IMG/VR virus record: IMGVR_UViG_3300021255_003103
Coordinates: 44,954 to 108,953 of that record
DNA length: 64,000 bases
Source: a virus
Taxonomy: Duplodnaviria > Heunggongvirae > Uroviricota > Caudoviricetes
Strand: one strand, 5' to 3'
Shown here piece after piece: positions 6,285 through 54,078 of the stretch (the stretch's first letter is position 1; every line of letters begins with the position of its first letter). Under the pieces are notes generated by a model that was not told the DNA's origin, did no database searches, and saw only the letters and a program-made list of their open reading frames with translations. The position numbers and the translations under genes are program-made.

Positions 6285-6698
6285 ATGATATCATTAAAAG
6301 ACTACATAATTAACGAATCGAAAGAAGACTATGTAAACTCTTTCGCAATATTAAAACCAGGATTTTTAGAACATGAAGAAGCTTGGCTTAAAATGTTAGA
6401 AGATGATGAATGGGATATATTAGACAAAAAGAAATTAACATTATCTAAAGAGCAAGCTGAACAATTATATATGATGCATAAAGGAAAAGACTTTTATGAT
6501 GATCTTGTTGAATATATGTCATCTGGAGAATGTTTATGCGTAAAATGCTATAAGGAATGCGAAGATCCAATTGAAGAAATGGATTCACTTAAAGATAAAG
6601 TTAGAGACACATGGGGAAAGAACGATATGAAAAATGCTATGCATAGTTCTGACTCAATTGAAAATGTAAAACGAGAGACACACATAGTTTTCAAATAG
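6285..6698 (+). CDS. ndk: Nucleoside diphosphate kinase with N-terminal MISLKDYIINES tag (CTS-like family member)
   Basis: NDK motifs are present: FAILKPG (cf. F-I-A-I-KPDG), LVEYMSSGECLCV (cf. L-V-x-YM-SGPVVA) and the active-site H in MHSSDS (cf. IHGSDS). The N-terminus matches the MK-x-L-x-x-YILES family tag. Confidence 0.75.
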   Translation: MISLKDYIINESKEDYVNSFAILKPGFLEHEEAWLKMLEDDEWDILDKKKLTLSKEQAEQLYMMHKGKDFYDDLVEYMSSGECLCVKCYKECEDPIEEMDSLKDKVRDTWGKNDMKNAMHSSDSIENVKRETHIVFK

Positions 6699-9944: not shown

Positions 9945-12170
9945 ATGAAATCATTTCCAAGTACATTAAATGAATCACAAAATATGTACGGATCTAATAG
10001 ATCTCAATCATATGAATCAACATTTGATATTGAAAGAATTAAACATGGTGCATTAAATCTTAATAAGAGTGTACCAGTTGTACAAGAAATGCTCAAGCAG
10101 CAAAATATCAATATTTCTAATTATAAGAATTATCCTAGTATGCTTGGAGTTACAAACCCATCAACCATGATTACAGATACTAATCAAATTAATATGACAG
10201 TATCTCAAGGAACCATAACAGAAGAAATTACAGATAAAGATGGTAATGTAACACAAACAACTAAAACTGGTAATTTTGGTGATTTAACATCTACAAAAAG
10301 AGAAAAAGGAGAAGCAATATTCTATGAAAATCCTTTGATGTTGCCAGCAGAAATAATTGCATTAGCTAAAGATTATGACTGGGTATATAAGAAAAGAGTA
10401 AAATCGATTATTAATGCTGAAAAGGAAGGAGATTCAATGAAAGCAAGAATATCTGAAACTGCAGTTGCGCCTTCAATGTTCAATCCAATGTATGGAGTAA
10501 GTGTATGTGGTATAACAAGAAATACTCCGCTTCTTAACGATACTGAAGATATTGAATTAGATCCACAAATAACAGACTGTTCAATTCGTACGTTATGTAC
10601 ATTATCAAAAACAGCAAATTCATCATTAGGACAAGCAAGATATAAATATGCAGATTTTATGTATTGTAAAGATCTTGGAAAAGTATCAAACAATCATTTG
10701 ATTACATTAAGAAAATTTGCTCACCCTATTGGTGATCATATATTTGAATTGACATCTCCTAAATATGTTGCAACTTCTGGTGAGCATTCATTTCAAGTTG
10801 AAGGTGATGTTGGTCGTTTAGTATCATGGTTTGGAACAGATGATAATAGATTGGAAGATATCTGCAAATATAGTTATCATGCTACTTGGAAAGAACTTAA
10901 TGCACAGATTGAAGAACAAGTATCAAAATCGGATGATTCAACTTCAGGCATACTTGGAATGATATCTAATTCATTTAACCCAGTATATAATAATGCAGTT
11001 AATGCTGGTCAAGCAGGTAATCATAGTATATGGGGATGGCTAGGCTCACATTTGTCTTCACATACATATCAAGGTATTGGTCAGAATAATGGTCTATTAA
11101 GAAACTATGACAACAATAAAGTATATACACCAAAAAATACAGTTCAATCAACAAATATATATGAAGGAAAATTAGAGTTTTCACATGAATTCACGTTGAA
11201 TTTTTCATATCAGTTAAGAGCATATGATAATATCAATCCACGAAGTGCATTAACAGATTTGATTGGAAACATACTTGAAGTAACATATAGACGTGGTAAG
11301 TTCTGGGGTGGTGATAGAAAATTAATAGGTCCACCACAAGAATTAGGACCTTTTAATAAGACAAGTGATTTTATTGATAATGCATTTGATAAACTTGGCG
11401 GATTTTTCCAGTCATTAATTAATGGTGGTTTAAATTTCGAAAACATAATAGGAACTATTGGTGCATCGTACGCTAATATACAAGGTGCAGCAATGAACTT
11501 AATGAAAGGCAATGGAATATCTCAAGTAGCAAATGAATTATCTGGTAAAATAAAAGATTTTATTACAACATCAGGTTTTACAGAAGCAGCAAAAGGATAT
11601 TTAAAAAACGCATTAGGTCGTCCAACCTTATATGCATGGCAATCATTATTAAGTGGAGATGATGTTGGATTGTGGCATGTAACAATAGGCAATCCTCGTA
11701 ATCCTATTTTATCAATTGGAAATCTAATATTGACAAATGCAACTGTACAGCACTCAGGTCCTTTAGGAATAGATGATTTTCCATCAGAACTTAAAGTATC
11801 TGTTACATTGAAACATGCTAGACCTCGTGATTTAACAGAAATAAGTCGTATGTATACTAAAGGTGCATCTGCAATATATCATCATTTTGGTCATCATGAT
11901 GTTAATACATTTTTTGGTAATGGTGCATCAACAGTATCTACTGACGGAAAAGATGCTAAGAAAAAGATTAGTGAAGCCTTTAATAAGGATGTTGAATTAT
12001 ACAGTACTACTGATAAAAATAATGAATATAATTTCCAATTTAGACCAGAAATCGATACTGAAGGATTAGTTTCAAATCCATTCTTAAAGACATCTGAAAA
12101 TATTAAGATAATGAGAACTAATAACTGGTCAGATACAATGTTTAGTGTTTCTGTACAAGAAGCAGCTTAA
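9945..12170 (+). CDS. Hypothetical 741-aa protein (possible virion component)
   Basis: Long ATG ORF with no recognisable motifs. Confidence 0.55.
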   Translation: MKSFPSTLNESQNMYGSNRSQSYESTFDIERIKHGALNLNKSVPVVQEMLKQQNINISNYKNYPSMLGVTNPSTMITDTNQINMTVSQGTITEEITDKDGNVTQTTKTGNFGDLTSTKREKGEAIFYENPLMLPAEIIALAKDYDWVYKKRVKSIINAEKEGDSMKARISETAVAPSMFNPMYGVSVCGITRNTPLLNDTEDIELDPQITDCSIRTLCTLSKTANSSLGQARYKYADFMYCKDLGKVSNNHLITLRKFAHPIGDHIFELTSPKYVATSGEHSFQVEGDVGRLVSWFGTDDNRLEDICKYSYHATWKELNAQIEEQVSKSDDSTSGILGMISNSFNPVYNNAVNAGQAGNHSIWGWLGSHLSSHTYQGIGQNNGLLRNYDNNKVYTPKNTVQSTNIYEGKLEFSHEFTLNFSYQLRAYDNINPRSALTDLIGNILEVTYRRGKFWGGDRKLIGPPQELGPFNKTSDFIDNAFDKLGGFFQSLINGGLNFENIIGTIGASYANIQGAAMNLMKGNGISQVANELSGKIKDFITTSGFTEAAKGYLKNALGRPTLYAWQSLLSGDDVGLWHVTIGNPRNPILSIGNLILTNATVQHSGPLGIDDFPSELKVSVTLKHARPRDLTEISRMYTKGASAIYHHFGHHDVNTFFGNGASTVSTDGKDAKKKISEAFNKDVELYSTTDKNNEYNFQFRPEIDTEGLVSNPFLKTSENIKIMRTNNWSDTMFSVSVQEAA

Positions 12171-17400: not shown

Positions 17401-17431
17401 TTTATAAATATAATAAAAATAATTTATATTG

Positions 17432-17986: not shown

Positions 17987-18008
17987 TAATTAAAATTTAT
18001 AATTAAAT

Positions 18009-18371
18009 ATGAGAAATTTGGATTATAGACGTAAGCAAGAAGCAAAGCATTATAAAAAGCGTTTAGAAGTTGCTGTAGCTATACGGCGTTACAAGAAAGT
18101 CAATAATATGATTATGCCAGTGTCAGAAAATAAAAATGATATCCCAGGATATTATCAATGGAGTCATAATAATGTAGATGAAAATAAGATATCATATAAA
18201 CGTTGGAAATATGCATTAAAGAATAATTCAATTAATTCAGATTTGGATCCGTGGATGAAGCGTCATTGTAGGAGAACCAGAAGACATTTTCAGAAAATGG
18301 TTGATTATAAGTTGCCTGATAAGAAATTTCTAGTACGAGCACAAGTAATTTACCCTCGAGATATTGTTTAA
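18009..18371 (+). CDS. Hypothetical basic protein (120 aa)
   Basis: ATG ORF, Lys/Arg-rich. Confidence 0.45.
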   Translation: MRNLDYRRKQEAKHYKKRLEVAVAIRRYKKVNNMIMPVSENKNDIPGYYQWSHNNVDENKISYKRWKYALKNNSINSDLDPWMKRHCRRTRRHFQKMVDYKLPDKKFLVRAQVIYPRDIV

Positions 18372-18396
18372 GGTAGCATAATGCTACCTTTTTTGA
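18371..18396 (+). terminator. Intrinsic terminator (aggtagcat..atgctacct + TTTTTT)
   Basis: Perfect 9-bp stem plus T6. Confidence 0.8.
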
Positions 18397-18641
18397 TTAT
18401 TATTTTTTATTTTTAATTATATAAATTAAAGCAATAAATATTATATGTAAGGTGCTTATGGAATATAGAGGTATTAAAGCATCGGAGCTTATAAAAGAAC
18501 TTAAAAAATATATTCATCAATTTGGTGACTTATATGTGGTTAAAAATAAAAATGGAGATATATGGCCAATTTATTTTATTAATCATTTTCCAAATACTAA
18601 CTATTTTGAATTAACATGAAATAAAAAATATAAATCAAAAC

Positions 18642-19277
18642 ATGAAAAACTTAAGTAATTATATTTTAGAATCATATAACACTGAAAAATGGAGTGGATA
18701 TAATCCGGCATTTAATTTATTTAGCGAAGATCCTATTGATTCTTTTAATTATAATGATATTATTACATATTTAAAAAATTTTCTTAATAATAATATTTAT
18801 TATGAACAAACATTTATAATAAAAGATAGAAATTTATCTGGATTTTGTGATATAACTGATAAACAAAGTAAAGAATGGTTAGATACTAAAAATGATGATC
18901 ATAAACGTAAATTTTCATTAGAAGATATTTTGAGTGTTAAATTATCAGAAAAAATATTTTTTGGCAAATTTACTCAAACAGGAAAAATAACAAAAAATGT
19001 TTATGGTTATTTAAAAATTGGTAAATCTAATAATGAAGTATTAATATTAAGTTATACAGAAAATAAAGATGAAGCAATTTTATTTGATACTGTTAAAGAT
19101 TTATTAGATGAAATCAAAAAATATAAAGAAGTAAAAATAGAATTACCAAAAGGTTATGCTGCAAGTAAACAAAACTATGCAAATAGTGTTGAATTATATG
19201 CAGATTTTTCTATAATGAATAAAAAATTTAAACCTAAACACGATACATGTGAATTAGGTATATTTATATATAAATGA
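18642..19277 (+). CDS. CTS-like-tagged hypothetical protein (MKNLSNYILES...)
   Basis: N-terminus carries the family tag MK-x-L-x-x-YILES. Confidence 0.55.
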   Translation: MKNLSNYILESYNTEKWSGYNPAFNLFSEDPIDSFNYNDIITYLKNFLNNNIYYEQTFIIKDRNLSGFCDITDKQSKEWLDTKNDDHKRKFSLEDILSVKLSEKIFFGKFTQTGKITKNVYGYLKIGKSNNEVLILSYTENKDEAILFDTVKDLLDEIKKYKEVKIELPKGYAASKQNYANSVELYADFSIMNKKFKPKHDTCELGIFIYK

Positions 19278-19495
19278 TATCATTACAACAATTTTTATTG
19301 GAAAATTATGAAATTTCCAAAATTACATTAACTGAAGAACTTCATGACGTAATTGTTAAAGTTGGAGATTATTGGAGAATAAAAGGTCATGCTGGAAAAG
19401 GAACAAATACACCTAAAAGAGGATATTGGAAAGCAAAATATGAAACAAAAGAAAAGGCTGAAAATGCATTAAAAGCATACTTTGCAAATAAATAA
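19274..19495 (+). CDS. CTS-like-tagged small protein (MISLQQFLLENYE...)
   Basis: Degenerate family tag; overlaps the upstream stop (ATGA). Confidence 0.45.
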   Translation: MISLQQFLLENYEISKITLTEELHDVIVKVGDYWRIKGHAGKGTNTPKRGYWKAKYETKEKAENALKAYFANK

Positions 19496-19507
19496 TATGA
19501 TTTAAAT

Positions 19508-19954
19508 ATGAAGGCATTTAAAGATTATATTTTAGAAGATAAAGTTACAGAATTTAATTATGCTTCTGAAGGAGATCATAATTTTATTGATGAGGTAATT
19601 GAATTATTGGAATCTAATGGATTTAATAAGACTGAAAAAAGGATATTAAAACCAAAAGAATATAAGATAGTAAATAATGGTTATGAATTATTTGTACGTT
19701 CTGAACAGCATAAAACTATAAAGAATACTAAATTAGTATGTATTCGTAAAGGAGATAATGGTAAATATGACTATTATTATAAATTTTCAAATGATTCTTT
19801 TTGGAGATATACATTTTCTAATAAACAACAAATAGTTAGATTTAGAGATTATCAACACGCACAAACAGGTATATTTGATGTAAAAGATTCTAAATGGCAT
19901 GATAGAATATTACAATCAATAAGAGGAATATTTAATATTAAAAAGGATAAATAA
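19508..19954 (+). CDS. CTS-like-tagged hypothetical protein (MKAFKDYILED...)
   Basis: Family tag at the N-terminus. Confidence 0.5.
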   Translation: MKAFKDYILEDKVTEFNYASEGDHNFIDEVIELLESNGFNKTEKRILKPKEYKIVNNGYELFVRSEQHKTIKNTKLVCIRKGDNGKYDYYYKFSNDSFWRYTFSNKQQIVRFRDYQHAQTGIFDVKDSKWHDRILQSIRGIFNIKKDK

Positions 19955-20598
19955 TGAAACCAATAACTGCATATATTTTTGAAAAGATAAAAAATCTTCC
20001 TGAATCTATTAAAGGATTGATTGTATTCGATATTGATGATACAATATTGAGAGTTGATCCTTCATTAATGGGTGTCTATAAGAAAGAACCAGGTAAAGAT
20101 GAAATACGATTAACAACTGATGAATTTGCTAAAGATCCAGATGCAGAAGACGAATCTAAAAAATCATGGTTTGATTATAGGGATTTTAGAGACCCTGTAA
20201 AAGTATATAATTCAATTATTTCAGGAACTCCTCTTATAAAGAATTTGAAGATAATGGATGACTATATTAAAGCTGGATATGATTTTTGCTTTTTGACAGC
20301 TCGTGGTTGTGAAGATACAATCAAGAAGGCTATAGGAGATTTCCTGAAGTTCAGAGATAAAGATGGTGCACTAAAAGAACTGGGTGATTCATTCAAGAAA
20401 ACATTTTCTCATGCTGTAAATGATGAAATAAAGAAATATCCAGGTAAGACAGATGCTGAGAAAAAAGGAAATGTATTGAAAAAACTTTGCAAGAAATATG
20501 ACAGAGTGGTATTTGTTGATGATGACCAGAAAAATGTACGTGCTGCTCGAGGATTAAATATAGATAATCTTAAAGTTATCAAAGCATGGGATGAATAA
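19954..20598 (+). CDS. HAD-superfamily phosphatase, T4 Pnkp 3'-phosphatase-domain-like, with CTS-like tag (MKPITAYIFEK)
   Basis: DxDxT motif in LIVFDIDDTIL, plus FLTARG and VVFVDDDQKNV blocks, align with the T4 polynucleotide kinase/phosphatase C-terminal domain. Confidence 0.6.
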   Translation: MKPITAYIFEKIKNLPESIKGLIVFDIDDTILRVDPSLMGVYKKEPGKDEIRLTTDEFAKDPDAEDESKKSWFDYRDFRDPVKVYNSIISGTPLIKNLKIMDDYIKAGYDFCFLTARGCEDTIKKAIGDFLKFRDKDGALKELGDSFKKTFSHAVNDEIKKYPGKTDAEKKGNVLKKLCKKYDRVVFVDDDQKNVRAARGLNIDNLKVIKAWDE

Positions 20599-20631
20599 TA
20601 TTAAAATTAAAATTTGGGATAAATAAAAATC

Positions 20632-21279
20632 ATGAAAACATTGCAATTATACATAAATGAATCTTTATCTAAAGAAATAATCGAATTGAGAAATAAATTA
20701 AAGAAATTGGATAAATCAAAAATTTTTGATGGAAATTACAATTTAGATGATTCTTTAGATAAAGAATTTTATGAAATATTAACTTCATTAAATAAGCCAA
20801 ATTCATCAAATACTACTTTAATTAATACATGGAGAATGTTATTTTCAAAATTAGTTGTGGAACCATTAGTTGGTGAATTGATTGGTGATAGCAAATGTGA
20901 ATATTCCTCTATTGATATTGACAGAACTGAAAAATGGGACATTAAATATAATGGAAATATATTAATAGATGTAAAAGCAACGTATAATAATCATACACAT
21001 AATTTTGGATTTGCAGAAAAAGATGCTAATTACATTATAAATTACAATAAAAATGACATTAATAAAAGATACACATTATTTGTTTACCCAGAAATAAAGA
21101 CATGGGAAGATGCTACAAAATTATATAAAAACAAATCTGAAGTTAATATGTTATTAATTAGTTTTTCAGATTTTAAGGAAATATTAGATGACAATAATTT
21201 TGAAGTAAAAAAATCAAATATAATGATTCCATATTCTTTTATTAATGAAAATAATAAATTTAGAAAGTTTAAAAAATGA
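20632..21279 (+). CDS. CTS-like-tagged hypothetical protein (MKTLQLYINES...)
   Basis: Family tag at the N-terminus. Confidence 0.5.
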   Translation: MKTLQLYINESLSKEIIELRNKLKKLDKSKIFDGNYNLDDSLDKEFYEILTSLNKPNSSNTTLINTWRMLFSKLVVEPLVGELIGDSKCEYSSIDIDRTEKWDIKYNGNILIDVKATYNNHTHNFGFAEKDANYIINYNKNDINKRYTLFVYPEIKTWEDATKLYKNKSEVNMLLISFSDFKEILDDNNFEVKKSNIMIPYSFINENNKFRKFKK

Positions 21280-21418
21280 AAAACATTGAAGAAATTATAA
21301 GTAAAGAATTACTAGAAATGTTTTCTAAAAATTATTTACAAGAAAGATTTGTAAATAAATATAAAAAAATTAAAAGTCATTAAGGCTTGGTAATAATAAA
21401 TAAAATTTTAAATTAAAT

Positions 21419-21883
21419 ATGTTTAATAAACTTAGAGAAAAAATTGGTAAATTTATATTACCAAACACTGTAAGAGTAGTTGATGCAGCAGATATGACTG
21501 TTGATGAATTAATGAATAATCATGTTCAAAAACTTGAGCAATTGCCTGGTGTATTTACTAAAGATTTTCTTGAAGATTTAATTAAAGAATATCCTAAATT
21601 TGATCATCCAAATATTGTTGAATCTGATGGTAAAATAAAATTTACTGATGCTAATGGAAAGACAGTACAACTTAAAGTTCCTCTTTTAACAATTGTTCCA
21701 ATCCCATATATTTCAAAAGATAGTATTGATTTAGATAAATATTATAAAGAAAATTTTGGGGAATCAAATCCACCAAAGAATATGGAAGATATAAAGGGTG
21801 TACAAGTAAATGTTCCTGCATTGAATATTGTTCCTATACCTTCAATTCCAATTAAAGAAGATAAAAAGAAAGAAAATAAATAA
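21419..21883 (+). CDS. Hypothetical protein with internal duplicated VP(L/A)L(T/N)IVPIP(Y/S)I motif (untagged)
   Basis: ATG ORF; two copies of a Pro/Ile-rich 13-aa motif. Confidence 0.45.
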   Translation: MFNKLREKIGKFILPNTVRVVDAADMTVDELMNNHVQKLEQLPGVFTKDFLEDLIKEYPKFDHPNIVESDGKIKFTDANGKTVQLKVPLLTIVPIPYISKDSIDLDKYYKENFGESNPPKNMEDIKGVQVNVPALNIVPIPSIPIKEDKKKENK

Positions 21884-23061
21884 TGAAACACTTAAGTGAA
21901 TATTTTTTTGAATCATTATCAAAAGAAAGTATCAAAAAATTAGAAGAATATATTTCTGATGATAATATTGACGAATATATTAAATTAATAAAACGTCATG
22001 GTGCATCATTAGGAATAGATAATGATTCATATGATAATTTTTTTGAAATACATGGATTATCAAAATTAAATTGGGGTAGAAATAATTCTGCAAAAAAACA
22101 GTTTGTTAAATTATTTAGTGAAGAAGACCATTTAGATATATTGACATCAATTGTTAAAAACAATGGTGTTTTATCAATAAAAGATGTTGAAGAAAATGGT
22201 AATATATTTAATTTATGTAAAATAGAAGACAATGATTTTTCTGATGAGGCAAAAACAATCGCAACTTGGACAAATTCAACATCAGCAAATGCAGGACCAT
22301 GTGAAATGCTTTTAAAATTTATATTAAAAGAAGGTCGTACATTTAAAAGTGGAGATGTGGGTATTCACGATGGCGAAGATAAAGAAATGGAAGTTAAAGC
22401 TGCAACAACTGGTAAAAATGCAAGTGGTGGTCATGCTGCAGGTCAAAAGGAAAACAATGGTCAAAAAATTAGAGGAGCATGGTCAATATATTTATACTTA
22501 AATAATAATTTATTTAATTTAGGAGATGATAATGCAGCTGCAGATAAATCAGCATATTTTCAAAATGATAACGGTATTAAAAATTTTAATCAATTAATAA
22601 AAGATAATAAATTAGATAAAGATGATCAATCGTTAAAAACATTATCAAATGGTATTGTTGATGCATTATGTTTTCAATATAATTTTATAACAAACGAAAA
22701 GGATTCAAAAAATTCATTAAATACAATTGATAAATTATATGATGCTGCATATGTTTATTGTAAAAGTATTTATGATAATGGATTTAAAAGACAAGATTTA
22801 TTTAATTTAGTTGGTTGCATACAATTATATCTTTATTCACAAGTAGAGAAATTCGATTATTTCTTTTGTGTACAAGTAGATAAATCTGATGAATCAACAA
22901 ATGAAAACAATGGCAATTATTGGTGTGCAAAAAACTGTAAATCACAAGATACAAAGCTATTAAAATTTAATATAGTAACAAATAATTTATATTTTGGACA
23001 ATTAGATAGTCCTACATCTTCACAAGGTCGTACAGGAAAAATTTATATGAAACTTAAATAA
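21883..23061 (+). CDS. CTS-like-tagged hypothetical protein, 392 aa (MKHLSEYFFESLS...)
   Basis: Family tag at the N-terminus; start overlaps the upstream stop. Confidence 0.5.
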   Translation: MKHLSEYFFESLSKESIKKLEEYISDDNIDEYIKLIKRHGASLGIDNDSYDNFFEIHGLSKLNWGRNNSAKKQFVKLFSEEDHLDILTSIVKNNGVLSIKDVEENGNIFNLCKIEDNDFSDEAKTIATWTNSTSANAGPCEMLLKFILKEGRTFKSGDVGIHDGEDKEMEVKAATTGKNASGGHAAGQKENNGQKIRGAWSIYLYLNNNLFNLGDDNAAADKSAYFQNDNGIKNFNQLIKDNKLDKDDQSLKTLSNGIVDALCFQYNFITNEKDSKNSLNTIDKLYDAAYVYCKSIYDNGFKRQDLFNLVGCIQLYLYSQVEKFDYFFCVQVDKSDESTNENNGNYWCAKNCKSQDTKLLKFNIVTNNLYFGQLDSPTSSQGRTGKIYMKLK

Positions 23062-23076
23062 TAAAATTAAAGCTTT

Positions 23077-23814
23077 ATGAAACAAGTAAAAGTTTGTTTA
23101 GGAAGATTTATGCCCTTCACATTAGGACATCTTAAGATGGCAACATATAAAGATCTAAAAGGTCCAGATAAGGAGCAGAAAGATGCTTTAAGAGAACAAC
23201 CAGACTTAAAAGAAATAGCTAAGCAAAAAACTATTATATTGTCTATATTGACTACAAAGGATAAAGTTGACACAAGACACCCATTTGATGCAGATTTGAT
23301 GAAAGATGAATTAGAATTACTTAAGAAAAACTATTCATCTGAAATTGAAGATATTCTATATGTTAAGTCTGCTGATATATGTGCATGGGGTGAAATGCTT
23401 AAAGAAAAAGGATATCAAGCATCAGTTTGGTTAACTGGCTCAGATGAGTTTGCTATGTACAAAGGCATGGCTATTAAGGTGCCAGAATATGAAGAACATA
23501 ATAGAAACAACTATGACTGCAAAGGTGCTTATACGAATTCATTCTATGTGGAAGAGATAGAACGTACAGATGATGGTGATTTTATATCGTCAATTTCTGG
23601 TACAAAAGTTCGTCAAGCTTTATTAAATAATGATAAAGAATTATTTACAAAAATGATGCCAAAGGGAGCTGACAAGTATTTTGATAAATTTAAAGAAGCT
23701 GTTGAAAATGCTCCAGAACCTAAGAAAAAGACATCATCTAATAAAAACAAAAATAATAAAGTTAAAGAAGGATTAACATCACTTAAGAAATATATATTAG
23801 AATCAATAAAATGA
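23077..23814 (+). CDS. Nicotinamide/nicotinate mononucleotide adenylyltransferase-like (cytidylyltransferase fold); C-terminus ends with tag-like ...SLKKYILESIK
   Basis: GRFMPFTLGH matches the (H/T)xGH nucleotidyltransferase motif of NadM/NMNAT (GRFQPFHxGH); a later ISGTKVR block is present. Confidence 0.6.
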   Translation: MKQVKVCLGRFMPFTLGHLKMATYKDLKGPDKEQKDALREQPDLKEIAKQKTIILSILTTKDKVDTRHPFDADLMKDELELLKKNYSSEIEDILYVKSADICAWGEMLKEKGYQASVWLTGSDEFAMYKGMAIKVPEYEEHNRNNYDCKGAYTNSFYVEEIERTDDGDFISSISGTKVRQALLNNDKELFTKMMPKGADKYFDKFKEAVENAPEPKKKTSSNKNKNNKVKEGLTSLKKYILESIK

Positions 23815-24212
23815 AATCATTAAATAATTATATTAATAATGAATATGTTAATGAAGGATTAAAAGATTCTTTCATTAATATTATAAAAAATTTTTTTAGT
23901 CATGGAGAAGTTTCAAATAAAAAATTAGTTACTATTGAAATGGATCCTAAGATATTTGGAAAATTAGTTCGTGATAAAGAATATTTTAAATATACTAATA
24001 AAGAATATCCTAAATTAGTGCCAAATCAAGATTATACTGTTGATGATTTATGGGAATTATATAAATGTGAATTAGGTGAAGATAAATATGGAAATGAAAC
24101 AACTATCTTTACTTATATAGGGCATGCAGATTTTAGAAAGGGCAAAAATGTAATTGAAGTTCAAGAAGAATATAAAGATTTCGTAGAAAAAATTTTTGCA
24201 AAATATAAATAA
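23811..24212 (+). CDS. CTS-like-tagged hypothetical protein (MKSLNNYINNEY...)
   Basis: Family tag; start overlaps the upstream stop (ATGA). Confidence 0.5.
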   Translation: MKSLNNYINNEYVNEGLKDSFINIIKNFFSHGEVSNKKLVTIEMDPKIFGKLVRDKEYFKYTNKEYPKLVPNQDYTVDDLWELYKCELGEDKYGNETTIFTYIGHADFRKGKNVIEVQEEYKDFVEKIFAKYK

Positions 24213-24216
24213 AAAT

Positions 24217-24543
24217 ATGAAAGCAATAAGTCAATATATTAATGAGTCTCAAGATACATATTCATTCACATTAGACGAAACGAAAATGCTATATTTTTCT
24301 GAAGATGAAATTGGAAAAATTATGAAAGATACTTGGGATAAGAATGGAAAATTTTATAAATTATTAAAAGAATTGGATTATAAGCCTGTTAATAATGATA
24401 TAAAAGATTTTTTAGAACAATGTTTAGATGATGATAGAGTAGCTGCACAGTTTGCTTCTTATATTGCAGACATAATTGGTAGAGACAATTTTAGTATTGA
24501 GCAAGTTCAAAAATTTATAAAAACAAATGATATTGTTGTGTAA
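24217..24543 (+). CDS. CTS-like-tagged hypothetical protein (MKAISQYINES...)
   Basis: ORF-track start 24196 is TTG; the first ATG, at 24217, gives the family tag directly. Confidence 0.5.
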   Translation: MKAISQYINESQDTYSFTLDETKMLYFSEDEIGKIMKDTWDKNGKFYKLLKELDYKPVNNDIKDFLEQCLDDDRVAAQFASYIADIIGRDNFSIEQVQKFIKTNDIVV

Positions 24544-25427
24544 TGAAACATCTATTAACATTTATAAAAGAATCACTTGGCATATTTGAAGGTGGTAATG
24601 CAGTTAAAGCGAATCCTATACCTGCGGTTATTGCACCTAAAGTATATGATGAAATATACAAGAAGGTGCAATCTAAATTTAAAATAGACATGATTCCGTT
24701 AGGCAGTATTGGTAAGAAAGCTGATGATAAGACTAATGGAGATATTGATGTCGCAGTTAAAATTGATAGTAAGGACAAACTCAATGAAATAGTTGATACT
24801 TGTTTTAGTGATTGTGAAATCAATTACACAACAATGGGTACTATTACATCATTTGGATATCCTTATGACATAGATGGTTATAAAGGAATTGCTCAAGTTG
24901 ACTTTATGATTGTTAAAGACATTAATTGGGCAAAGTTCAGATATCATTCACCAAATTTTAAAAAGAATGAATCAAAATATAAAGGTGGCGCAAGAAATTG
25001 TATGTTATGCGATGTTGTTGCATGTATACCAGTAGAAGATGCAAAAGACGAGTATTTTGAAGATGGGAAAACGGTTAAGCGTCATTGGAAACATACATTC
25101 AATACAGAAGGAATATTTATACAATTAGTAGATTTTTGTGGTAAGAATGGCAAGCCATTAAAGACTGGTAAAAAGTTAAAAGAATTTGAGAAATTAGTTA
25201 CTAATGATCCAGAAAACTGCATTAAGTTTATATTTGGAGACAACGGTACAATAGATGATGCTAATTCAGCTGAATCAATTTGGAAAGCTATTCATGATCC
25301 AAAGAAATTCAAATGGGGTGATGACATTCTTGCAAAAATTGAAGAAAAAGTGTACAATGATAAATCACTTGAAGAGTTTGGTTTAGATTTAGAAAACGAT
25401 TTCCCAACAAAATTCTATAATAAATAA
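24543..25427 (+). CDS. Pol-beta-superfamily nucleotidyltransferase with CTS-like tag (MKHLLTFIKES...)
   Basis: GSIGKKADDKTNGDIDVAV matches the GS-x(9-13)-D-h-D-h minimal NTase motif. Confidence 0.5.
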   Translation: MKHLLTFIKESLGIFEGGNAVKANPIPAVIAPKVYDEIYKKVQSKFKIDMIPLGSIGKKADDKTNGDIDVAVKIDSKDKLNEIVDTCFSDCEINYTTMGTITSFGYPYDIDGYKGIAQVDFMIVKDINWAKFRYHSPNFKKNESKYKGGARNCMLCDVVACIPVEDAKDEYFEDGKTVKRHWKHTFNTEGIFIQLVDFCGKNGKPLKTGKKLKEFEKLVTNDPENCIKFIFGDNGTIDDANSAESIWKAIHDPKKFKWGDDILAKIEEKVYNDKSLEEFGLDLENDFPTKFYNK

Positions 25428-25428
25428 T

Positions 25429-26550
25429 ATGAATCATTTAATAGATAAGTACTTAAAAAAACCCGAATATGTAAAAGAACTTTTTAATAAAGAAGTATCA
25501 ATATCATTAAAGGTTGATGGTGCTGCATTTCAAATATCTTATGATAAAGATCAAGACAAGATAACATATCATAAACGTGGTGGTAGTTCAAAAAGTCTTG
25601 GTCCAATTATTGATGAATACACTCAATTAATGAGAAAGAATGTAAATGATGCAATTGAATATTTTGATAATAAAAAAGATATATTAAAGCAATATAAATT
25701 CTATGCTATTGAAATGTTTAATGATTCATATATTTTATTAACTGTAATTGATAATGATAATAATATTATAGATAATGTTTCAAAACTTAAAGAAATTTCA
25801 AAATCATTGAATATTGATTGTGTTCCTATTTTATTTGATGGTAAATTAAATAAAGAACAAATAGATTCTTTATTAGAAATGATGTCATTAGATCCTGAAA
25901 CAAATAATGATACATATAAAGAATATTTAACAAATATTTTTGGTAAAGGTGAATATCAGAAATTTTTAAATGGAGATGAGGTAGAAGGAATTGTACTTAC
26001 ATGGAATACTGATAAGATTGAACAATATAAGATAATAAATCCAGCATTTAAGACTAGACATGATAAAGAAATTAAACAAGGTAATGAAGAGTTCCAGAAA
26101 GAAATGGAAGAACTTCGTGAACTATTTGAGTTCTTTTATGAAAGTCTTAATAAGTATGGAAAATATTATGGTGATAATTGGATTAAGACATTAAATGATA
26201 ATTTTATAATGATGAATGAACAATCTGATTTTCAACGCAAATTAAAAGAATTTAATAATTCTATTAAGCCAAAATTCAAAGATTTCTTTACATTACAATC
26301 AAATAAAATCGATAAAAGAATACAAAAGTTAATTGATGAATATGGAGATAACATGAAATTTTATTATGAAAAATATTTATCATTATTTAATAAACAAAAG
26401 AAACGTAATTTTACAATTTCAAAAGAATTTCAAATGAAAGTCAATGATTTGATTGAAAAATTACAATCAAAAAATGAATCATTAAAATTATATACAAAAT
26501 ATCATATAAAAGCATTAAATAATTATATATTAGAATCAAAATATAAATAA
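25429..26550 (+). CDS. ATP-dependent polynucleotide ligase (Rnl2/DNA-ligase-type nucleotidyltransferase; KxDG motif I); C-terminus ends with tag-like ...KALNNYILESKYK
   Basis: EVSISLKVDGAAFQI aligns with the T4 Rnl2 motif I region (EWVAREKIHGTNFSL). Size is 373 aa. Confidence 0.55.
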   Translation: MNHLIDKYLKKPEYVKELFNKEVSISLKVDGAAFQISYDKDQDKITYHKRGGSSKSLGPIIDEYTQLMRKNVNDAIEYFDNKKDILKQYKFYAIEMFNDSYILLTVIDNDNNIIDNVSKLKEISKSLNIDCVPILFDGKLNKEQIDSLLEMMSLDPETNNDTYKEYLTNIFGKGEYQKFLNGDEVEGIVLTWNTDKIEQYKIINPAFKTRHDKEIKQGNEEFQKEMEELRELFEFFYESLNKYGKYYGDNWIKTLNDNFIMMNEQSDFQRKLKEFNNSIKPKFKDFFTLQSNKIDKRIQKLIDEYGDNMKFYYEKYLSLFNKQKKRNFTISKEFQMKVNDLIEKLQSKNESLKLYTKYHIKALNNYILESKYK

Positions 26551-26555
26551 TTATA

Positions 26556-27062
26556 ATGAAAAATATTATTAAATTTATCTTAGAAAAATTATTACCATTT
26601 AATGTTTGGATAATGGTTGGATTACCAGGTTCAGGTAAGTCAACATATATTAAAGAAGAACTTCCAAAGAATATTGAAATTATAAACCAAGATTCAATTA
26701 GAGTTGAACTTGGTATAATGAAAGATGATGAGCATAAAGCAATTGGAAATTCCGAACAAGAAAAAGAAGTTGCAAGAATTTGTTTAGAACGAATTGATAA
26801 AGCAATTAAAGATAAAAGAGATTTTGTTATTGATAATACAAATATTAAAGCAGGAAGAGTACAAAATTATTATGATAAGTTAAAGAAAGCTAATGCTAAT
26901 GTTCAAATAATCATTATTGATACTCCTAAAGAAATTTGCAAAGATCGTCGTAAAGAACATATACCAGAAAAGGTTATTGATGATATGCAATTAGGTCTTG
27001 ATAAAGTAAAGGATAAATTTAAGAATAATAAAGATACAATAATAGTTACAAATAGATATTAA
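26556..27062 (+). CDS. Polynucleotide 5'-kinase (T4 Pnkp kinase-domain-like) with CTS-like tag (MKNIIKFILEK)
   Basis: Walker A GLPGSGKST; IINQDSIR (cf. T4 INRDDYRQ); FVIDNTNIKAGRV (cf. VIISDTNLNPERR). Confidence 0.7.
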   Translation: MKNIIKFILEKLLPFNVWIMVGLPGSGKSTYIKEELPKNIEIINQDSIRVELGIMKDDEHKAIGNSEQEKEVARICLERIDKAIKDKRDFVIDNTNIKAGRVQNYYDKLKKANANVQIIIIDTPKEICKDRRKEHIPEKVIDDMQLGLDKVKDKFKNNKDTIIVTNRY

Positions 27063-27095
27063 ATAATTATTTTTAATAAATAAATAAATTATAAT

Positions 27096-27473
27096 ATGAA
27101 ATCAATAAGTAAATATATTTTAGAGTCAAAAAATAATAAAGAGTTAGTTAATTTTATTCATAAATTTGGATCAAAAGATGAGCAAAAATTTGATAAATTT
27201 ATTAATAATTTAGATATTAATAATGATGCTATAAATTTATTAAAAAAGAATTTTAATAATGATTCAGAATTTTATTATATAAATAGTGAATATTCAGATT
27301 CAGATTCATTTCAAGATAAATTACAAGATTTAATCGATGAAATTGAAGATAATGGAGAATTAATTGATGAATGGGATAATGAAGAAACATATATAAAAAT
27401 ATATAATCATTCTGATTTTGGAAAATTAATTTATATTGATATGTATGTACAAATAATTTTAATAGAAAAATAA
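27096..27473 (+). CDS. CTS-like-tagged acidic hypothetical protein (MKSISKYILES...)
   Basis: Family tag at the N-terminus. Confidence 0.5.
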   Translation: MKSISKYILESKNNKELVNFIHKFGSKDEQKFDKFINNLDINNDAINLLKKNFNNDSEFYYINSEYSDSDSFQDKLQDLIDEIEDNGELIDEWDNEETYIKIYNHSDFGKLIYIDMYVQIILIEK

Positions 27474-27496
27474 TTTTAATAATATATGAAATTTTT

Positions 27497-27529
27497 AAGC
27501 TGGAATTTGAATATTTCCAGCTTTTTTCT
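27497..27529 (+). terminator. Intrinsic terminator (aagctggaaat..atttccagctt + TTTTTCT)
   Basis: 11-bp inverted repeat plus T-run. Confidence 0.8.
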
Positions 27530-27580
27530 ATATTATATATATAAAATAAATAATTAATAAACAATAAAAATTTAAAAACA

Positions 27581-27892
27581 ATGAACAAGACAACTGCACG
27601 TTATTTCAATTTAAATGAGTTTAAGGCTGGTAAGAACGCTACTACTAAGCTTGGTAACCCCGTAAAGTTTATTACTATTACAGCCGACGGTAAGTTGCTC
27701 GTAAAGGTTAATCACCGCAGTAAGATTTCAGGTTTTTCAAATAAGGTTATTGTTCCGATGTTTGAAGGTACTGTTGAAAAATATAATATGGATGGTAGCA
27801 AGTACCGCGGAACTGAGACGGAGTTCGACTTGGTAATGGAAGCTCCAAAGCGTCCACGAAATGAAAAGGGACAGTTTGTAAAGATGGGTTAA
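27581..27892 (+). CDS. Hypothetical 103-aa protein with markedly elevated GC and atypical codon usage (possible recent acquisition)
   Basis: Codons such as ccgcag, ccgcgg, gacggag and ctcgta are rare elsewhere in the window; the gene is bracketed by two terminators. Confidence 0.5.
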   Translation: MNKTTARYFNLNEFKAGKNATTKLGNPVKFITITADGKLLVKVNHRSKISGFSNKVIVPMFEGTVEKYNMDGSKYRGTETEFDLVMEAPKRPRNEKGQFVKMG

Positions 27893-27908
27893 AACCCATC
27901 TTCTTTTA
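27882..27908 (+). terminator. Intrinsic terminator (agatgggtt-aaa-acccatct + TCTTTTATT) overlapping the stop codon
   Basis: 9-bp stem; the TAA stop is in the loop. Confidence 0.7.
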
Positions 27909-27946
27909 TTCTCTAATTTAATATGCAATGAAAATTTATCAAATAA

Positions 27947-28159
27947 TTGGGTATCCTATTGATTGTGAAAGGCCGTTCTTTGTTACCTAAAATGATGAAA
28001 GCTTATACATCATATAAGGAAGCTGAAAAATATAAAAAAGCTTGGCTAGATCTTTGGGATAAACATACTGATAATCATGATTTAATATCTCCATGTTGGT
28101 ATGATTATCGAAGATACCTTGATATTAATGAAGTTGAAGTAGAAGAAAAATTTACATAA
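27947..28159 (+). CDS. Hypothetical small protein (70 aa)
   Basis: ATG ORF. Confidence 0.35.
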   Translation: MGILLIVKGRSLLPKMMKAYTSYKEAEKYKKAWLDLWDKHTDNHDLISPCWYDYRRYLDINEVEVEEKFT

Positions 28160-37397: not shown

Positions 37398-40300
37398 ATG
37401 GCTCTTTTTGATGAAAGAATTAATGAATATGTTAGCTGGAAAGATGGTAAGCATTATTTTTCAGGAAAAAATGTAACTGATAATATGCAGCCTTCGGGAA
37501 GGGTTATTCGTGAATTATTACAAGAAAGATTAAGAAATCCAATTTTTATACCAACAAAAGAATCTGTTGGTACATCTACATTTATTGATGATGGATATTG
37601 GAGAATATTCTCAAGTAAAGATGCATATGATTTATGGCTTACTGATAGAGTTGCATATGCAGAATTAGAATTAGCAAAATTCCCAAAGCAATCAGAATAT
37701 GAATTCCAATTAACTGGATTTGAAAATAATGCAAGATATGTTATTGAGGGTAGTGGGAATCAAGCAAATGCTGAATTAAACTATACTTGGGATATATTTA
37801 AAGGGCAAAATCCAGTAAATGATAGTATTATAGTTACATATACAATTACAAATACAAATACTAGAAAGACACAATCTTTTACAAACATGTTTACAAATGC
37901 ACAAAAGAATGTGTCAATTAATCTTTATGAATATTTAGGAGAAGGTCAAAATGTTGTAAATATTAATTTGCAAGGTATTAATACATCTGTTTCTGCTGGG
38001 CAAACAATATTTATTACAATGTTACAATTTAAAATTGAAGCAGAATGGAATTATTCTGCATATCATAAACAAGGTGATCCTTTAATGATTCTAAATTATC
38101 GTGTTTTAAGAAACGATACAAATGCTGAAGTAACAGTTTTTGGAACTATTGATAATAATGATACTGTTATTACTGATACATTTGGAAAGGGTTTTTCTGA
38201 TATTCAAAAAACAAATATAGCAATACCAAATAATAACAGATGGGTATCATCAAGTGATGGAAACCCAGTTAAGCACAATTTACAAATGTGGGCTCAGACA
38301 TCATATAATGGTACATTATTTACATCAAATATACTTTATTATGAATTTGAGTTTGCATCAGAAGAATCATTAATTAATCACTTTATTAATTTATCGACAT
38401 CAATTTCATCTGAAGATAAATCATCAATACCTGTTATTAATCCAACATTAATAGCAACTCAATATATTTCAACTAAAATATCTTATGGATATTACACTGA
38501 TAGTGCTTCCCTTGATGCTTCAATTTCAGTGAATTGGAAATTAATTAAAGAAAATTCTACAGATGAACAAATAATTGGAACTTACGATATTTCAAAAAAT
38601 ACAACAAGTGTTTTAGAATTTATACCAATTATAGCAACAGAAGCTAAAAAATCAGTATATTTAGTTGCCACTTATGGAAGTGGAGTAGATGAAGAAGAAC
38701 TTTTGAAAATATTAATATCAATTACACCTAATACTGGTTTTATGGAGCAAAGCGGTTATGTATTAAAGTTAAATGCATACGGTAAGCAAAATAATGATAA
38801 TGTAGAACAGACATGGGAATATGGGTCAAGTTCAAATAAAATAATTACAAGATTTGAAGGTATAGATTGGACTGATAATAAAGGATGGTATAATAATTCA
38901 TTTAGAACATTTGGAACAGATTCCTATGCAGAAATTCAATATGCACCATTAGTAGATATATCACAAGGTAAAACTATTGAAATTGATTTTGAATCAGAAA
39001 AGGTTAGTAATCTTAATGATGTATTAATATTAATTGGTAATAAAAATGGTGCTAGAATTGAAATTACACCAAATAGTGCTACACTATATAATGCAGCTAA
39101 TGTAAATGTCATTGAAACAAACTTTAAAGCAAATGAACGTCTTCATTTATGTTTTATCTTTAATAAAACAGAAACTAATTCAGATAAGAGTGATTTGATT
39201 TTTATAACAAACAATGGTATTCTTGAACGTGCTGTTTCTGGATTAGGTTCAACATTTACATCAAATGGTAATATTAAAATTGGTGGAAGTAGATCTGGTG
39301 TAAGGGTGTATAGTATAAGAGTATATGATTTTGCATTATCTTATACAAATGCATATAATAACTATTTATTTGATTCAGAAGATAAAATTGCAATTAAAAC
39401 AAAAAATGCAGTAATTAATGAATCAACAAATATTATAGACTATGATTTATGTCGTAACAAGATTGATACAATTTTAATTAAAGGTGATTTAAGTAATTTA
39501 TTAAAAGCAACAACAGATAAAGACCAATCTACAACAGATGTTGAAATATTACGTGTATGTCCTTATGATTCAAACTATAACTTTACATGCACTGGTGGTA
39601 TGATTAGAAAACACGGTCAGTCAACATTGAACTATCCTGTTCCTTCAATGAAAATTTGGTTTAATAAGTCAAAATCTGGAGCAACTCCAGTATTTCAATG
39701 TTCTGGCCAAGAAAGCGAAGGATATGCAAAGAATAGATATAGAATGAAAGCAAATTCTATACCTTCAAATAAATTTGTATTACAAGCAAACTACTCAGAT
39801 TCATCTGGTGTTCATAATGGATCATTACAAAGATTAATTAATGAGACATGGTATAATGCAAAGATTAATGGTGAATACAAATTAAGAACAATACCTCAGT
39901 TATTTACATCTAATCAAAAAATTACTAGAAATAATTCTAATCTTTATGATCAATTAGATACAAATAGCAATCTTACTTTAGGAACAAATACTGACGGAAA
40001 ACAATGGAAAGATTATACAAATAATCAATTCCCATATATTTATAGTGATTCTAATAACAAAATGCATAATGGATTACAAATTGGCCCAGATTCGTTCCCT
40101 TGCGTAGTTTTCTATGAAGATACATCATCAAGTGGTAACACAACATTCTTAGGATTATATGTATTCATGGAAGATAAAAAGGCAGATTTCATATATGGAG
40201 AAAGATCTATTTATTATTACGATAATGGTTCTGGACATACATTAGCTGATGATCCATTTGTCTTAAAAACAGAAAACACCAAAAAAGGTAAATATGCAAT

Positions 40301-47014: not shown

Positions 47015-47112
47015 ATTTACTTAAATTTTCAATAGGATAAGAAAATTTTTATTTTTATATAAATTAAAATTCTCAATAGAGAAATAACAAATAAATTTTG
47101 ATTATAAATAAT

Positions 47113-53900: not shown

Positions 53901-54078
53901 TGGTGGTATTCAAGCTTATAAGAATATTATGGATGAATCTAATAATACACCAGACATTATTGATAATGAAATGGCTGTTATTACAACTCATATTGAACCT
54001 GGCATGGGATGTGGTAAGATGGTACAAGAACTTCATATTTGGAGAACTGGTCAAATGAATGCAAATATTTCAGATTAA
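50935..54078 (+). CDS. Contractile tail sheath protein (1047 aa)
   Basis: The N-terminal region aligns with the T4 gp18 sheath: GYSEKGPFNVPVLVKDPYEFRSIFG vs GKFQWGPAFQIKQVTNEVDLVNTFG; YFHRLALQMLQVSPILCLNL vs YFMSAMNFLQYGNDLRVVRA. A small tube-like gene follows. Confidence 0.7.
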   Translation: MAIPVHLQQFKAAGIYRVVFDHSAILNQDTQMLRLVVGYSEKGPFNVPVLVKDPYEFRSIFGDISKRLEKRGIYFHRLALQMLQVSPILCLNLKKFDGETVQGATISTDFNPKFTPIDTVTLNVEDIYDTTRFWTLDAEKLNDLRSVEGSLLDQYINISATNVKATSCTYFIRKASGTKVSGYNITVNDWYSDEEMPEYMEPYKNNLISDFFAEIYVFKGKFEAKQVLASNTLKNYFIVTNELDEDGNQILKLRDKVINAFGESVDTLDALYKDETSGALGHYIGAIIPYFKNKQGAYACLDVAFNSDIDTHNMMLSFNKDLLEEENAANLDLSGRIRIPSPKNPLKANKSLSVDKIYNGTASTSVLGNIAAPVIADVTSFYTNVWDPETETPLQDVYVGKTRIAGTLYVKAIKENIEVEAGTAGQIELAQVGSDQTITMTFNTTQNEWKVREVARKLGVVFDEEGNAKKGIGTYWPSGDAFIDATDPLRGPQKVITALSRLEHKSADGTEYTDIDENIKPALKEVEVLTRIKYVNTTAVGADAVYGSSVSFIDFCDDNWEYVEDAEIIKGVKQAALIGTAQYDTSLLNILQKGDCLLAEDGMIDENENGEADDENGYIDNVNVQEFGTLYYEEGEEDIHEEKDENGDIILHHAGDFKFHYILISAEPWLYEILDEETGATINRALVRVDAALNQEIGTMVPQYLQGYTYKNDRPLGTGMYAKVKWQEFILSTITDYKGLRTALLNKSEIDYRYVIDTFESFPVSNLKNVLSYLCKEKQSAFCIANFPSVKNFIKCPYTSFTDSKGVFNVEYVVKGFNKKKSASMMFSLPSENDGASFIAFYTPLKFTDGYLDTLVPAAGLVSNLFVNKYISRQPYYIVAGPNYGAITASGLVGPDYKYSMDELQIIEPFGVNVMVYRPNFGTFINANQTAKQTPVSALSKVNVRELVIYLQDEIEKVLQAYQWEFNNQRTRNAILDRANQICSIIAANGGIQAYKNIMDESNNTPDIIDNEMAVITTHIEPGMGCGKMVQELHIWRTGQMNANISD

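Follow-up and report, generated by a model that had tools for sequence, protein, structure and literature searches.

A T4-like tag on fourteen unrelated proteins of an uncultured huge myovirus

What do phage proteins of quite different families gain from beginning with almost the same eleven residues? The question is raised by a 64,000-nucleotide stretch of an uncultured member of the Caudoviricetes (IMG/VR record IMGVR_UViG_3300021255_003103, positions 44,954 to 108,953), here called the window, in which genes between positions 18642 and 27473 share a tag with the consensus M-K-x-[L/I]-x-x-[Y/F]-I-x-E-[S/K]. An earlier note, made from the letters alone, had likened this tag to the capsid-targeting sequence of the coliphage T4 internal proteins. 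From the evidence set out below we consider it likely that the tag serves capsid targeting and cleavage in the manner of T4, on a larger scale and at either end of the protein.

The tag and its carriers

The window encodes 14 tagged proteins, 12 with the tag at the N-terminus (11 plus-strand genes within 18642-27473 and a nucleoside diphosphate kinase (NDK) gene at 6285) and two with it at the C-terminus; none of the minus-strand genes of the window is tagged. Every gene start given in the earlier note was present at its position with the translation reported. To these we add the twelfth N-terminal tag, at 19274, which was missing from that list, and two C-terminal tags which had been overlooked (23077..23814, ending ...LTSLKKYILESIK, and 25429..26550, ending ...IKALNNYILESKYK). 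The carriers are given here with scores, in bits, from the matrix described below, and with their orthologs in the tag loci of three related contigs (L053, L014 and L088).

6285..6698, plus strand: NDK (Pfam NDK, E=3e-20), tag MISLKDYIINES, with an extra residue before the Glu
18642..19277, plus strand: 211 amino acid (aa) protein without known family, MKNLSNYILES, score 22.7, 96% identical ortholog in L053
19274..19495, plus strand: 73-aa protein, MISLQQFLLEN, score 7.5, orthologs in L053 and L088
19508..19954, plus strand: 148-aa protein, MKAFKDYILED, not in L053, L014 or L088
19954..20598, plus strand: 214-aa HAD-family phosphatase, MKPITAYIFEK (Pfam Hydrolase, E=3e-8; also PHROG 415 'polynucleotide kinase', E=6e-10)
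20632..21279, plus strand: 215-aa protein, MKTLQLYINES, orthologs in L014 and L088, none in L053
21883..23061, plus strand: 392-aa protein without known family, MKHLSEYFFES
23077..23814, plus strand: 245-aa cytidyltransferase-like protein (PHROG 3041 and 395 'cytidyltransferase'), no N-terminal tag, C-terminal LTSLKKYILES (nt 23773..23805) followed by IK and the stop
23811..24212, plus strand: 133-aa protein, MKSLNNYINNE, Glu displaced by one position, score 11.2
24217..24543, plus strand: 108-aa acidic protein, MKAISQYINES, homolog in L014 fused in frame behind RNA ligase
24543..25427, plus strand: 294-aa protein, MKHLLTFIKES, possibly a nucleotidyltransferase from a GS...DIDV motif judged by eye
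25429..26550, plus strand: 373-aa RNA ligase (Pfam RNA_ligase, E=7.5e-7, above threshold), no N-terminal tag, C-terminal IKALNNYILES (nt 26506..26538) followed by KYK and the stop
26556..27062, plus strand: 168-aa polynucleotide-kinase-type P-loop kinase, MKNIIKFILEK (Pfam AAA_33, E=2e-20)
27096..27473, plus strand: 125-aa acidic protein, pI 4.3, MKSISKYILES

The recurrence of the tag in the window is far above chance. A position matrix trained on 31 tags from five other contigs, non-syntenic and unrelated, was applied to all 507 ATG starts of the window with at least 40 open codons. Eleven starts scored between 7.5 and 22.7 bits, the other 496 reached at most 0.8, and all eleven are the first ATG of plus-strand open reading frames (ORFs) from 18642 to 27096. 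The runners-up were the NDK start at 6285 (0.8 bits, because the one-residue insertion shifts the register) and a start at -0.2. For random peptides of the same composition a score of 7.5 bits has p = 1e-4, so that 0.05 starts would be expected against the 11 seen.

Codon use and divergence indicate that selection acts on the tag peptide and not on the DNA. Among 62 distinct tags from the window and 10 AT-rich relatives, the synonymous choice at Y7, I8, E10 and S11 follows bulk codon usage (TAT 0.89 vs 0.91; GAA 0.92 vs 0.93; ATT/ATA 0.42/0.55 vs 0.56/0.39), the sole exception being AAA at codon 2 (0.97 vs 0.75), which hints at an extra translational preference. Position 4 is L/I in 60 of these tags, position 7 is Y/F in 61, position 8 is I in 53 and position 10 is E in all 62; positions 3, 5, 6 and 9 are free, with [S/N/D] favoured at 3. 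This logo is partly circular, since the selection pattern demanded residue classes at 4, 7, 8 and 10; the 12 window tags, picked by the earlier note rather than by pattern, show the same constrained positions. The peptide pattern is moreover kept in contigs from 25% to 41% GC (MKTFKQYISEA and MKKFRQYITES at 34-41%). The conservation at the DNA level which had been pointed out is thus present as similarity, for which codon bias at 25% GC accounts, but not as nucleotide constraint. The codon evidence also speaks against the alternative that the 5' region is only a translation-initiation or regulatory element, and a DNA- or RNA-level element was rejected as the basis of the tag for the same reason.

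Comparison with relatives further indicates that the tag is a position-independent module and an exchange point for cargo genes, since C-terminal and internal tags keep the pattern and fusions and tails join at the tag. Complete domains follow it in the NDK (from residue 19, the tag and linker forming an N-terminal extension), the kinase (from residue 17) and the HAD phosphatase (from residue 22). AlphaFold2 modelled the kinase with a pLDDT of 89 and placed the tag, at lower confidence, in a helix of its own (residues 4-12) ahead of strand 1. To the protein at 24543 a Lak megaphage homolog of 33% identity can be aligned only from residue 14 onward, and it is untagged. Among full-length kinase homologs, 82/89 are tagged, with highly variable residues at the free positions, and a homolog of 37% identity is untagged. 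The cytidyltransferase homologs form 65 clusters, of which about 49 carry a C-terminal or internal tag: some 30 end in ...G[M/L]xSLKxYILES plus 2-4 residues and the stop, about 19 (300-392 aa) contain an internal ...GMKSLxxYIxE... followed by 90-140 residues, and about 12 are short and untagged. The tails behind the internal tag belong to 14 unrelated families. The RNA ligase of L014 continues through '...KIN-MKSISQYINES-...' into a homolog of the separate 108-aa protein of the window. The C-terminal tags have the same conserved and free positions as the N-terminal ones, in L053 despite 30% overall identity.

The search for the same tag in related genomes, which the earlier note had suggested as a check, yielded tag arrays in relatives, and their gene content bears out its description of a hyperplastic locus with unrelated proteins behind the tag. 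L053 lacks the genes at 19508, 20632, 21419, 23811, 24543, 25429 and 27096, its versions of 21883 and 23077 are 30% identical, and the L014 and L088 loci differ further in gene content and order. The breakpoints fall within the tags, and what follows these is diverse, from kinase, HAD phosphatase, NDK and others to the 14 unrelated tails. In L014 the ortholog of the 392-aa protein starts MKSLKESLSDKG, the Y-F-F-E core of the tag being lost. Two small ORFs of the region hold stretches resembling the tag. A 35-aa ORF within the cluster (21276..21383) begins with a degenerate tag, MKNIEEIISKE, with Ile replacing the aromatic residue and Lys at position 10, and an ORF at 18459..18619, just before the first tagged gene, contains an internal tag-like ELIKELKKYIHQF with Gln replacing Glu.

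The T4 counterpart and the head proteins of the window

A matrix made from the window tags alone was used to scan the 1580 ATG starts of T4 (NC_000866) with at least 40 open codons, N-terminal starts only. The genes ipIII and ipII (MKTYQEFIAEA) ranked second and third with 8.2 bits, the next best scoring 2.7, which upholds the resemblance to the capsid-targeting sequence proposed in the earlier note. Rank 1, with 16.0 bits, went to gp61.1 (MKTFKEFIKED); IPI, which is cut later, begins with the same seven residues, MKTFKEF. Gene 61.1 (18966..19130, minus strand) encodes 54 aa annotated as hypothetical and outscores ipII and ipIII on this matrix; from its start the product may be an unrecognised internal protein. 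We know of no report of gp61.1 being packaged, nor of a structural account of prohead-core recognition by the T4 targeting sequence.

The targeting sequences and the variable internal-protein loci of T-even phages have long been known (PMC9026906; PMC12373910). For IPIII, ten N-terminal residues are enough to bring about packaging into the T4 head, and amber-suppressor genetics showed that residues 4 and 7 chiefly set targeting and residues 8 and 10 processing (PMC9026906). These are the constrained positions 4, 7, 8 and 10 of the tag. The tags also end in I-x-E, matching, as had been claimed, the (L/I)-x-E site of the gp21-family protease. As in T4, the spacing is M-K-x-h-x-x-aromatic-I-x-E over 10-11 residues with the same critical positions, the tag sits on otherwise unrelated proteins, and the genes are clustered, variable among relatives and exchanged at the tag. 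The differences concern scale and use. T4 has three or four tagged proteins genome-wide, whereas the window holds 14 in 64 kb; position 4 is Leu/Ile in the window phage and Tyr/Phe in T4; and the tags of the window also occur at C-termini or as internal joints, the extreme N-terminus being the sole position tested in T4. This last difference widens the known usage of T4-type tags and does not conflict with the mechanism.

The cargo differs as well. All three T4 internal proteins are anti-restriction factors (PMC12373910), and they are described as basic (PMC9026906); the window cargo includes enzymes of 137-392 aa with mixed charge, and about half of the carriers are small proteins without an enzyme signature. 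The picture of unrelated cargo drawn in the earlier note stands, with the qualification that much of it is recognisable enzymes, unlike the small basic proteins of T4. The best fold matches of the kinase model are to the Clostridium thermocellum Pnkp kinase, the Pnkp1/Rnl/Hen1 RNA-repair complex and T4 Pnk. At the sequence level BLASTP links the kinase to T4 PseT (E=1.5e-5), and there is a weak NCBIfam Pnkp match. Judged by these families, the kinase, HAD phosphatase and RNA ligase would make an RNA end-healing and sealing set. A polynucleotide 5'-kinase, HAD phosphatase and RNA ligase are likewise encoded by T4 for tRNA repair by Pnkp and Rnl1 (pseT, rnlA), but there they are made after infection, have no capsid-targeting sequence and are not virion components, whereas all three are tagged in the window, where kinase and phosphatase are separate proteins unlike in T4 Pnkp. 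The acidic tagged proteins at 27096..27473 (pI 4.3, long D/E runs) and 24217..24543 (pI 4.5) are, by composition, reminiscent of DNA-mimic anti-restriction proteins.

Two head genes of the window bear on the proposed function.

45278..47014, plus strand: prohead protease with a scaffold-like tail, 578 aa (Pfam Peptidase_S77, 45.6 bits, cut-off 27)
47113..48882, plus strand: major capsid protein, Gp23 family (Pfam Gp23, E=2e-27)

The gp21-like protease and gp23-like capsid protein named in the earlier note are confirmed by these Pfam matches and by the conserved catalytic residues of gp21, since hhalign gave the protease a 92% probability against T4 gp21, with both the catalytic His (GELEHP) and Ser (ISSRGAG) retained. 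The S77 domain (residues 29-152) is followed by an acidic linker, a predicted coiled coil and about ten tandem 12-residue repeats of (Y/F)SPEIQxWIxEE (residues 287-430, nt 46136..46567; at the DNA level a period of 36, 6.5 copies, 92% identity). The repeat core I-Q-x-W-I-x-E-E has the spacing and residue classes of the tag segment L-x-x-Y-I-x-E-S, and outside the tagged proteins this head protease-scaffold protein is the only place in the window where the pattern is repeated. Neither gp21 nor gp22 of T4 has such repeats; a T4 echo is that gp22 begins MLKEQLIAEA and gp67 contains KLFAEA, to be compared with EFIAEA of the targeting sequence. The capsid protein carries the motif ...YAAIHEIHE|SQ (residues 36-42, nt 47218..47238), conserved in relatives, in which I-H-E|S is a likely maturation site; the next Glu after residue 41 comes only at 128, so a Glu-specific cut would fall at or before E41.

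The repeats are a lasting feature of the protease and accompany the tags. Six to 11 copies occur in 120/120 of the closest protease homologs, proteases of 34-40% identity, from contigs of 38-40% GC, have 5-8 copies of IEKWIVEE, and the protease of the cultured Tenacibaculum phage PTm1 has degenerate repeats in the same region, including IEKWILES and VESYINES. Tag loci and protease loci were found on the same contigs as follows.

Tag locus L053: repeat-bearing protease locus L133, same contig
Tag locus L014: repeat-bearing protease locus L145, same contig
Tag loci L004, L015, L093 and L108, spread over 100 kb: protease L142, one 435-kb contig
Tag loci L088 and L060: repeat-bearing protease locus L134, same contig

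The protease of the uncultured huge phage LR756500 is built alike but lacks the repeats, and no tags were found within 41 kb around the capsid gene of that phage; nor were any found in the regions of Lak-B6 that were read. Two ORFs of PTm1 (L131), ORF-307 (MKKLYDHISEN, 26365..26586) and ORF-293 ((L)RKLYSVISEN, 10982..11671), share a variant start in which His or Val replaces the aromatic residue. This start is perhaps a cultured phage's diverged form of the tag.

Readings of the tag

We propose that the tag, as a short helix, would copy one I-Q-x-W-I-x-E-E unit of the scaffold-like tail of the protease, whereby the tagged protein would join the scaffolding core during prohead building. The protease would then cut after the Glu (I-x-E|S), as in dismantling of the scaffold and probably in trimming of the capsid protein, and the freed cargo would remain in the head and enter the next host with the DNA. 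Scaffold binding, cleavage after Glu10, packaging and injection are inferred. Because a signal of this kind would act by binding and would not depend on lying at the N-terminus, it could work at a C-terminus or as a cleavable joint of two cargo proteins, and the shared tag-coding stretch could also serve as a swap site for cargo genes. The cargo here would include, besides several small proteins, NDK and nucleotidyltransferase-like proteins, the set for healing and sealing RNA ends.

A bolder form of this proposal seems to us possible but rather doubtful, namely that the tag is literally a unit of the scaffold repeat, so that any protein acquiring it, at an end or as a joint, would co-assemble and be freed by the cuts that remove the scaffold. 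In this way huge phages of an abundant clade would preload dozens of proteins, among them a complete RNA repair kit of polynucleotide kinase, phosphatase and RNA ligase as well as nucleotidyltransferase-like proteins, for injection against tRNA- and RNA-cleaving defences before any phage expression.

Several observations weigh against the targeting and cleavage interpretation. The scaffold repeats have Trp and E-E where the tags have Tyr/Phe and E-S/K, so that the pattern is alike and not identical, and the AlphaFold2 model of the protease-scaffold protein (14-sequence alignment) reached a pLDDT of only 41, which makes the helical prediction for its repeats unusable. A C-terminal tag cut after its Glu stays on the enzyme, which does not fit the picture of a propeptide being removed. 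The mature cargo has pI values of 4.3-9.5 and includes many ordinary enzymes, unlike the basic internal proteins of T4, and we know of no precedent for the packaging of an NDK or a cytidyltransferase. PTm1 has degenerate repeats, yet across the 77 kb examined, 50 kb from the start and 27 kb from the end of its genome, no more than one or two weak tags turned up. The top T4 match, gp61.1, is annotated as hypothetical and is not known to be packaged, so the motif by itself is no proof of packaging. The clade is uncultured, and packaging, cleavage and injection are predictions from sequence.

Three other explanations fit less well with the invariant Glu, the match to the functional positions of T4 and the repeats of the protease-scaffold protein. 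In the first, which we regard as unlikely, the tag would be a docking motif for a hub other than the capsid (the sliding clamp, a replication or nucleotide-synthesis complex or an RNA-repair complex), and the tagged enzymes would cooperate in the infected cell. PIP boxes also sit at extreme termini and share the h-x-x-aromatic pattern, docking motifs are similarly placed at N-terminal, C-terminal and internal positions, and many carriers handle nucleic acids or nucleotides (kinase, phosphatase, RNA ligase, NDK), whereas the half of the carriers that are small and without enzyme signature are less readily explained. For the clamp the motif itself disagrees: at the PIP position the tags lack the Gln, Ile replaces the second aromatic residue, and the invariant Glu three residues on has no clamp role but is the gp21 cleavage residue. 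The clamp-binding tails of T4 (SLDFLFG, TLDFLL, SLDFLYEAND; compared by eye) are C-terminal, with neither the invariant Glu nor the M-K start. Identity with a PIP box (Q-x-x-[LIM]-x-x-[FY]-[FY]) or with the T4 tail [ST]-L-D-F-L-[FLY] was rejected on this mismatch. Also against a docking hub, the only other repeated copy of the pattern in the window lies in the head protease-scaffold protein.

The second explanation, which we hold to be improbable, takes the gene starts as recombination handles or as a translation-start context that moves cassettes, the peptide being a functionless by-product. Breakpoints do lie in the tags (the fusion of ligase, tag and 108-aa protein in L014, and the 14 unrelated tails), the over-used AAA at codon 2 fits efficient initiation, and gene shuffling at short conserved sequences is known from T4-type genomes (PMC2839356, PMC4122927). 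Against it, conservation is periodic at the amino acid level (4, 7, 8, 10) with positions 3, 5, 6 and 9 and the synonymous sites drifting at bulk rates, the peptide pattern survives from 25% to 41% GC with differing DNA, and C-terminal tags keep it at 30% overall identity. A recombination role does not, in any case, contradict the targeting model, which would itself lead one to expect it.

A degradation or timing signal, by which a cytoplasmic protease, possibly the prohead protease outside the head, would switch the enzymes off or on late without packaging, is very improbable: degrons do occur at either terminus and the phage's own protease has its cleavage motif at the end of the tag, but losing ten residues ahead of a complete domain would not inactivate the enzymes, and the repeats of the scaffold tail and the T4 targeting positions 4 and 7 would be left unexplained. 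The gp21-type proteases, moreover, act inside assembled proheads (PMC9026906).

Two further systems invite comparison with the proposed capsid-targeting tag. The phiKZ-like phages are likewise giants with a gp21-related prohead protease and with many head-internal proteins thought to be targeted by cleavable propeptides and ejected into the host (PMC5694885). Their propeptides (SPN3US, 201phi2-1, phiKZ) are mostly >100 residues long and are cut at (S/A/G)-x-E or A-x-E (PMC5694885); they share no short consensus, in contrast to the window tag with its T4-length consensus ending in I-x-E. A long propeptide of the phiKZ type was rejected, the domains of the window proteins starting at residues 17-22 and the site being I-x-E. 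Encapsulin cargo-loading peptides are short and conserved, sit at either terminus via a linker, direct unrelated enzymes into an HK97-fold shell and are unrelated in sequence to the window tag. They bind the shell directly and are not removed, and the system involves no protease, DNA or cell-to-cell delivery. In the library searched, neither short tags of the T4 type in huge phages or megaphages, nor C-terminal or internal targeting tags, nor tag-like scaffold repeats had been reported before.

The tag-like tandem repeat in the protease-scaffold protein offers a concrete, testable idea, namely mimicry of a scaffold unit by the tag. Should packaging of the tagged enzymes prove real, the repertoire of phage-injected proteins would grow from small inhibitors and RNA polymerases to an RNA-repair toolkit, with a bearing on the survival of huge phages in the face of anticodon nucleases and other defences aimed at RNA. 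With the tag as a simple rule, virion-internal proteins could also be predicted from sequence for thousands of uncultured huge phages, and a short tag usable at either terminus would be useful for loading foreign proteins into capsids, as already done with the T4 tag.

Genome setting and minor observations

The window, with a GC content of 25%, comes from a huge uncultured myovirus distant from T4. Its capsid protein shares 30-37% identity with the capsid proteins of an uncultured 462-kb phage, the Tenacibaculum phages pT24 and PTm1, Sphingomonas phage PAU and the Lak megaphages. The genes of the window recur on one 128-kb ENA contig and one JGI contig, and contigs of 245-474 kb encode identical or near-identical proteins; megablast of window positions 18000..28000 against the cultured-phage collection gave no DNA-level match. 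The tag cluster is embedded in the structural block and lies on the strand of the structural genes, which include a tail sheath gene (50935..54078, plus strand). The same block holds two very large plus-strand ORFs, at 873..6119 (1748 aa) and 37398..44045 (2215 aa).

The 392-aa protein had no match by tblastn among cultured phages and none to PHROG 455, and PDB sequence searches with it, the 294-aa protein, the RNA ligase and the protease gave no match. T4 NrdC.10 and NrdC.11 were considered as counterparts of the pair formed by the 392-aa protein and the cytidyltransferase and were rejected as unrelated. In the higher-GC contigs L055 (4820..7293) and L030 (6849..8072) a tagged protein of about 400 aa (MKTFKQYISEA, MKKFRQYITES) corresponds to the first half of PHROG 455, and the cytidyltransferase gene that comes next in L055 corresponds to the second. 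A pair of tagged protein and cytidyltransferase, as at 21883 and 23077 in the window, thus recurs and is fused in some cases.

Hairpins resembling terminators flank the tag cluster.

18370..18390, plus strand: terminator-like hairpin immediately 5' of the cluster, a nine-pair stem followed by a T run
27881..27902, plus strand: terminator-like hairpin immediately 3' of the cluster, a candidate only

Both are only suggestive, because the count of terminator sites in the window is no higher than in shuffled sequence; matches to sigma-70-like promoters are likewise at the shuffled level. The T4 late-promoter sequence TATAAATA occurs at 55 sites in the window against 34 expected, a number reached in 0/100 shuffles. 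Copies at 47103..47110, 24204..24211, 26542..26549 and 17403..17410 were noted, and the sequence lies a few bases 5' of the capsid gene start and of certain tagged-gene starts. As a marker of tagged genes it was rejected, since these are not singled out as a class. The 30 bases 5' of the tagged genes are nearly all A/T, without a purine run resembling a Shine-Dalgarno sequence, and many have ATAAATA a few bases before the ATG. Such leaders would suit a Bacteroidota-like host.

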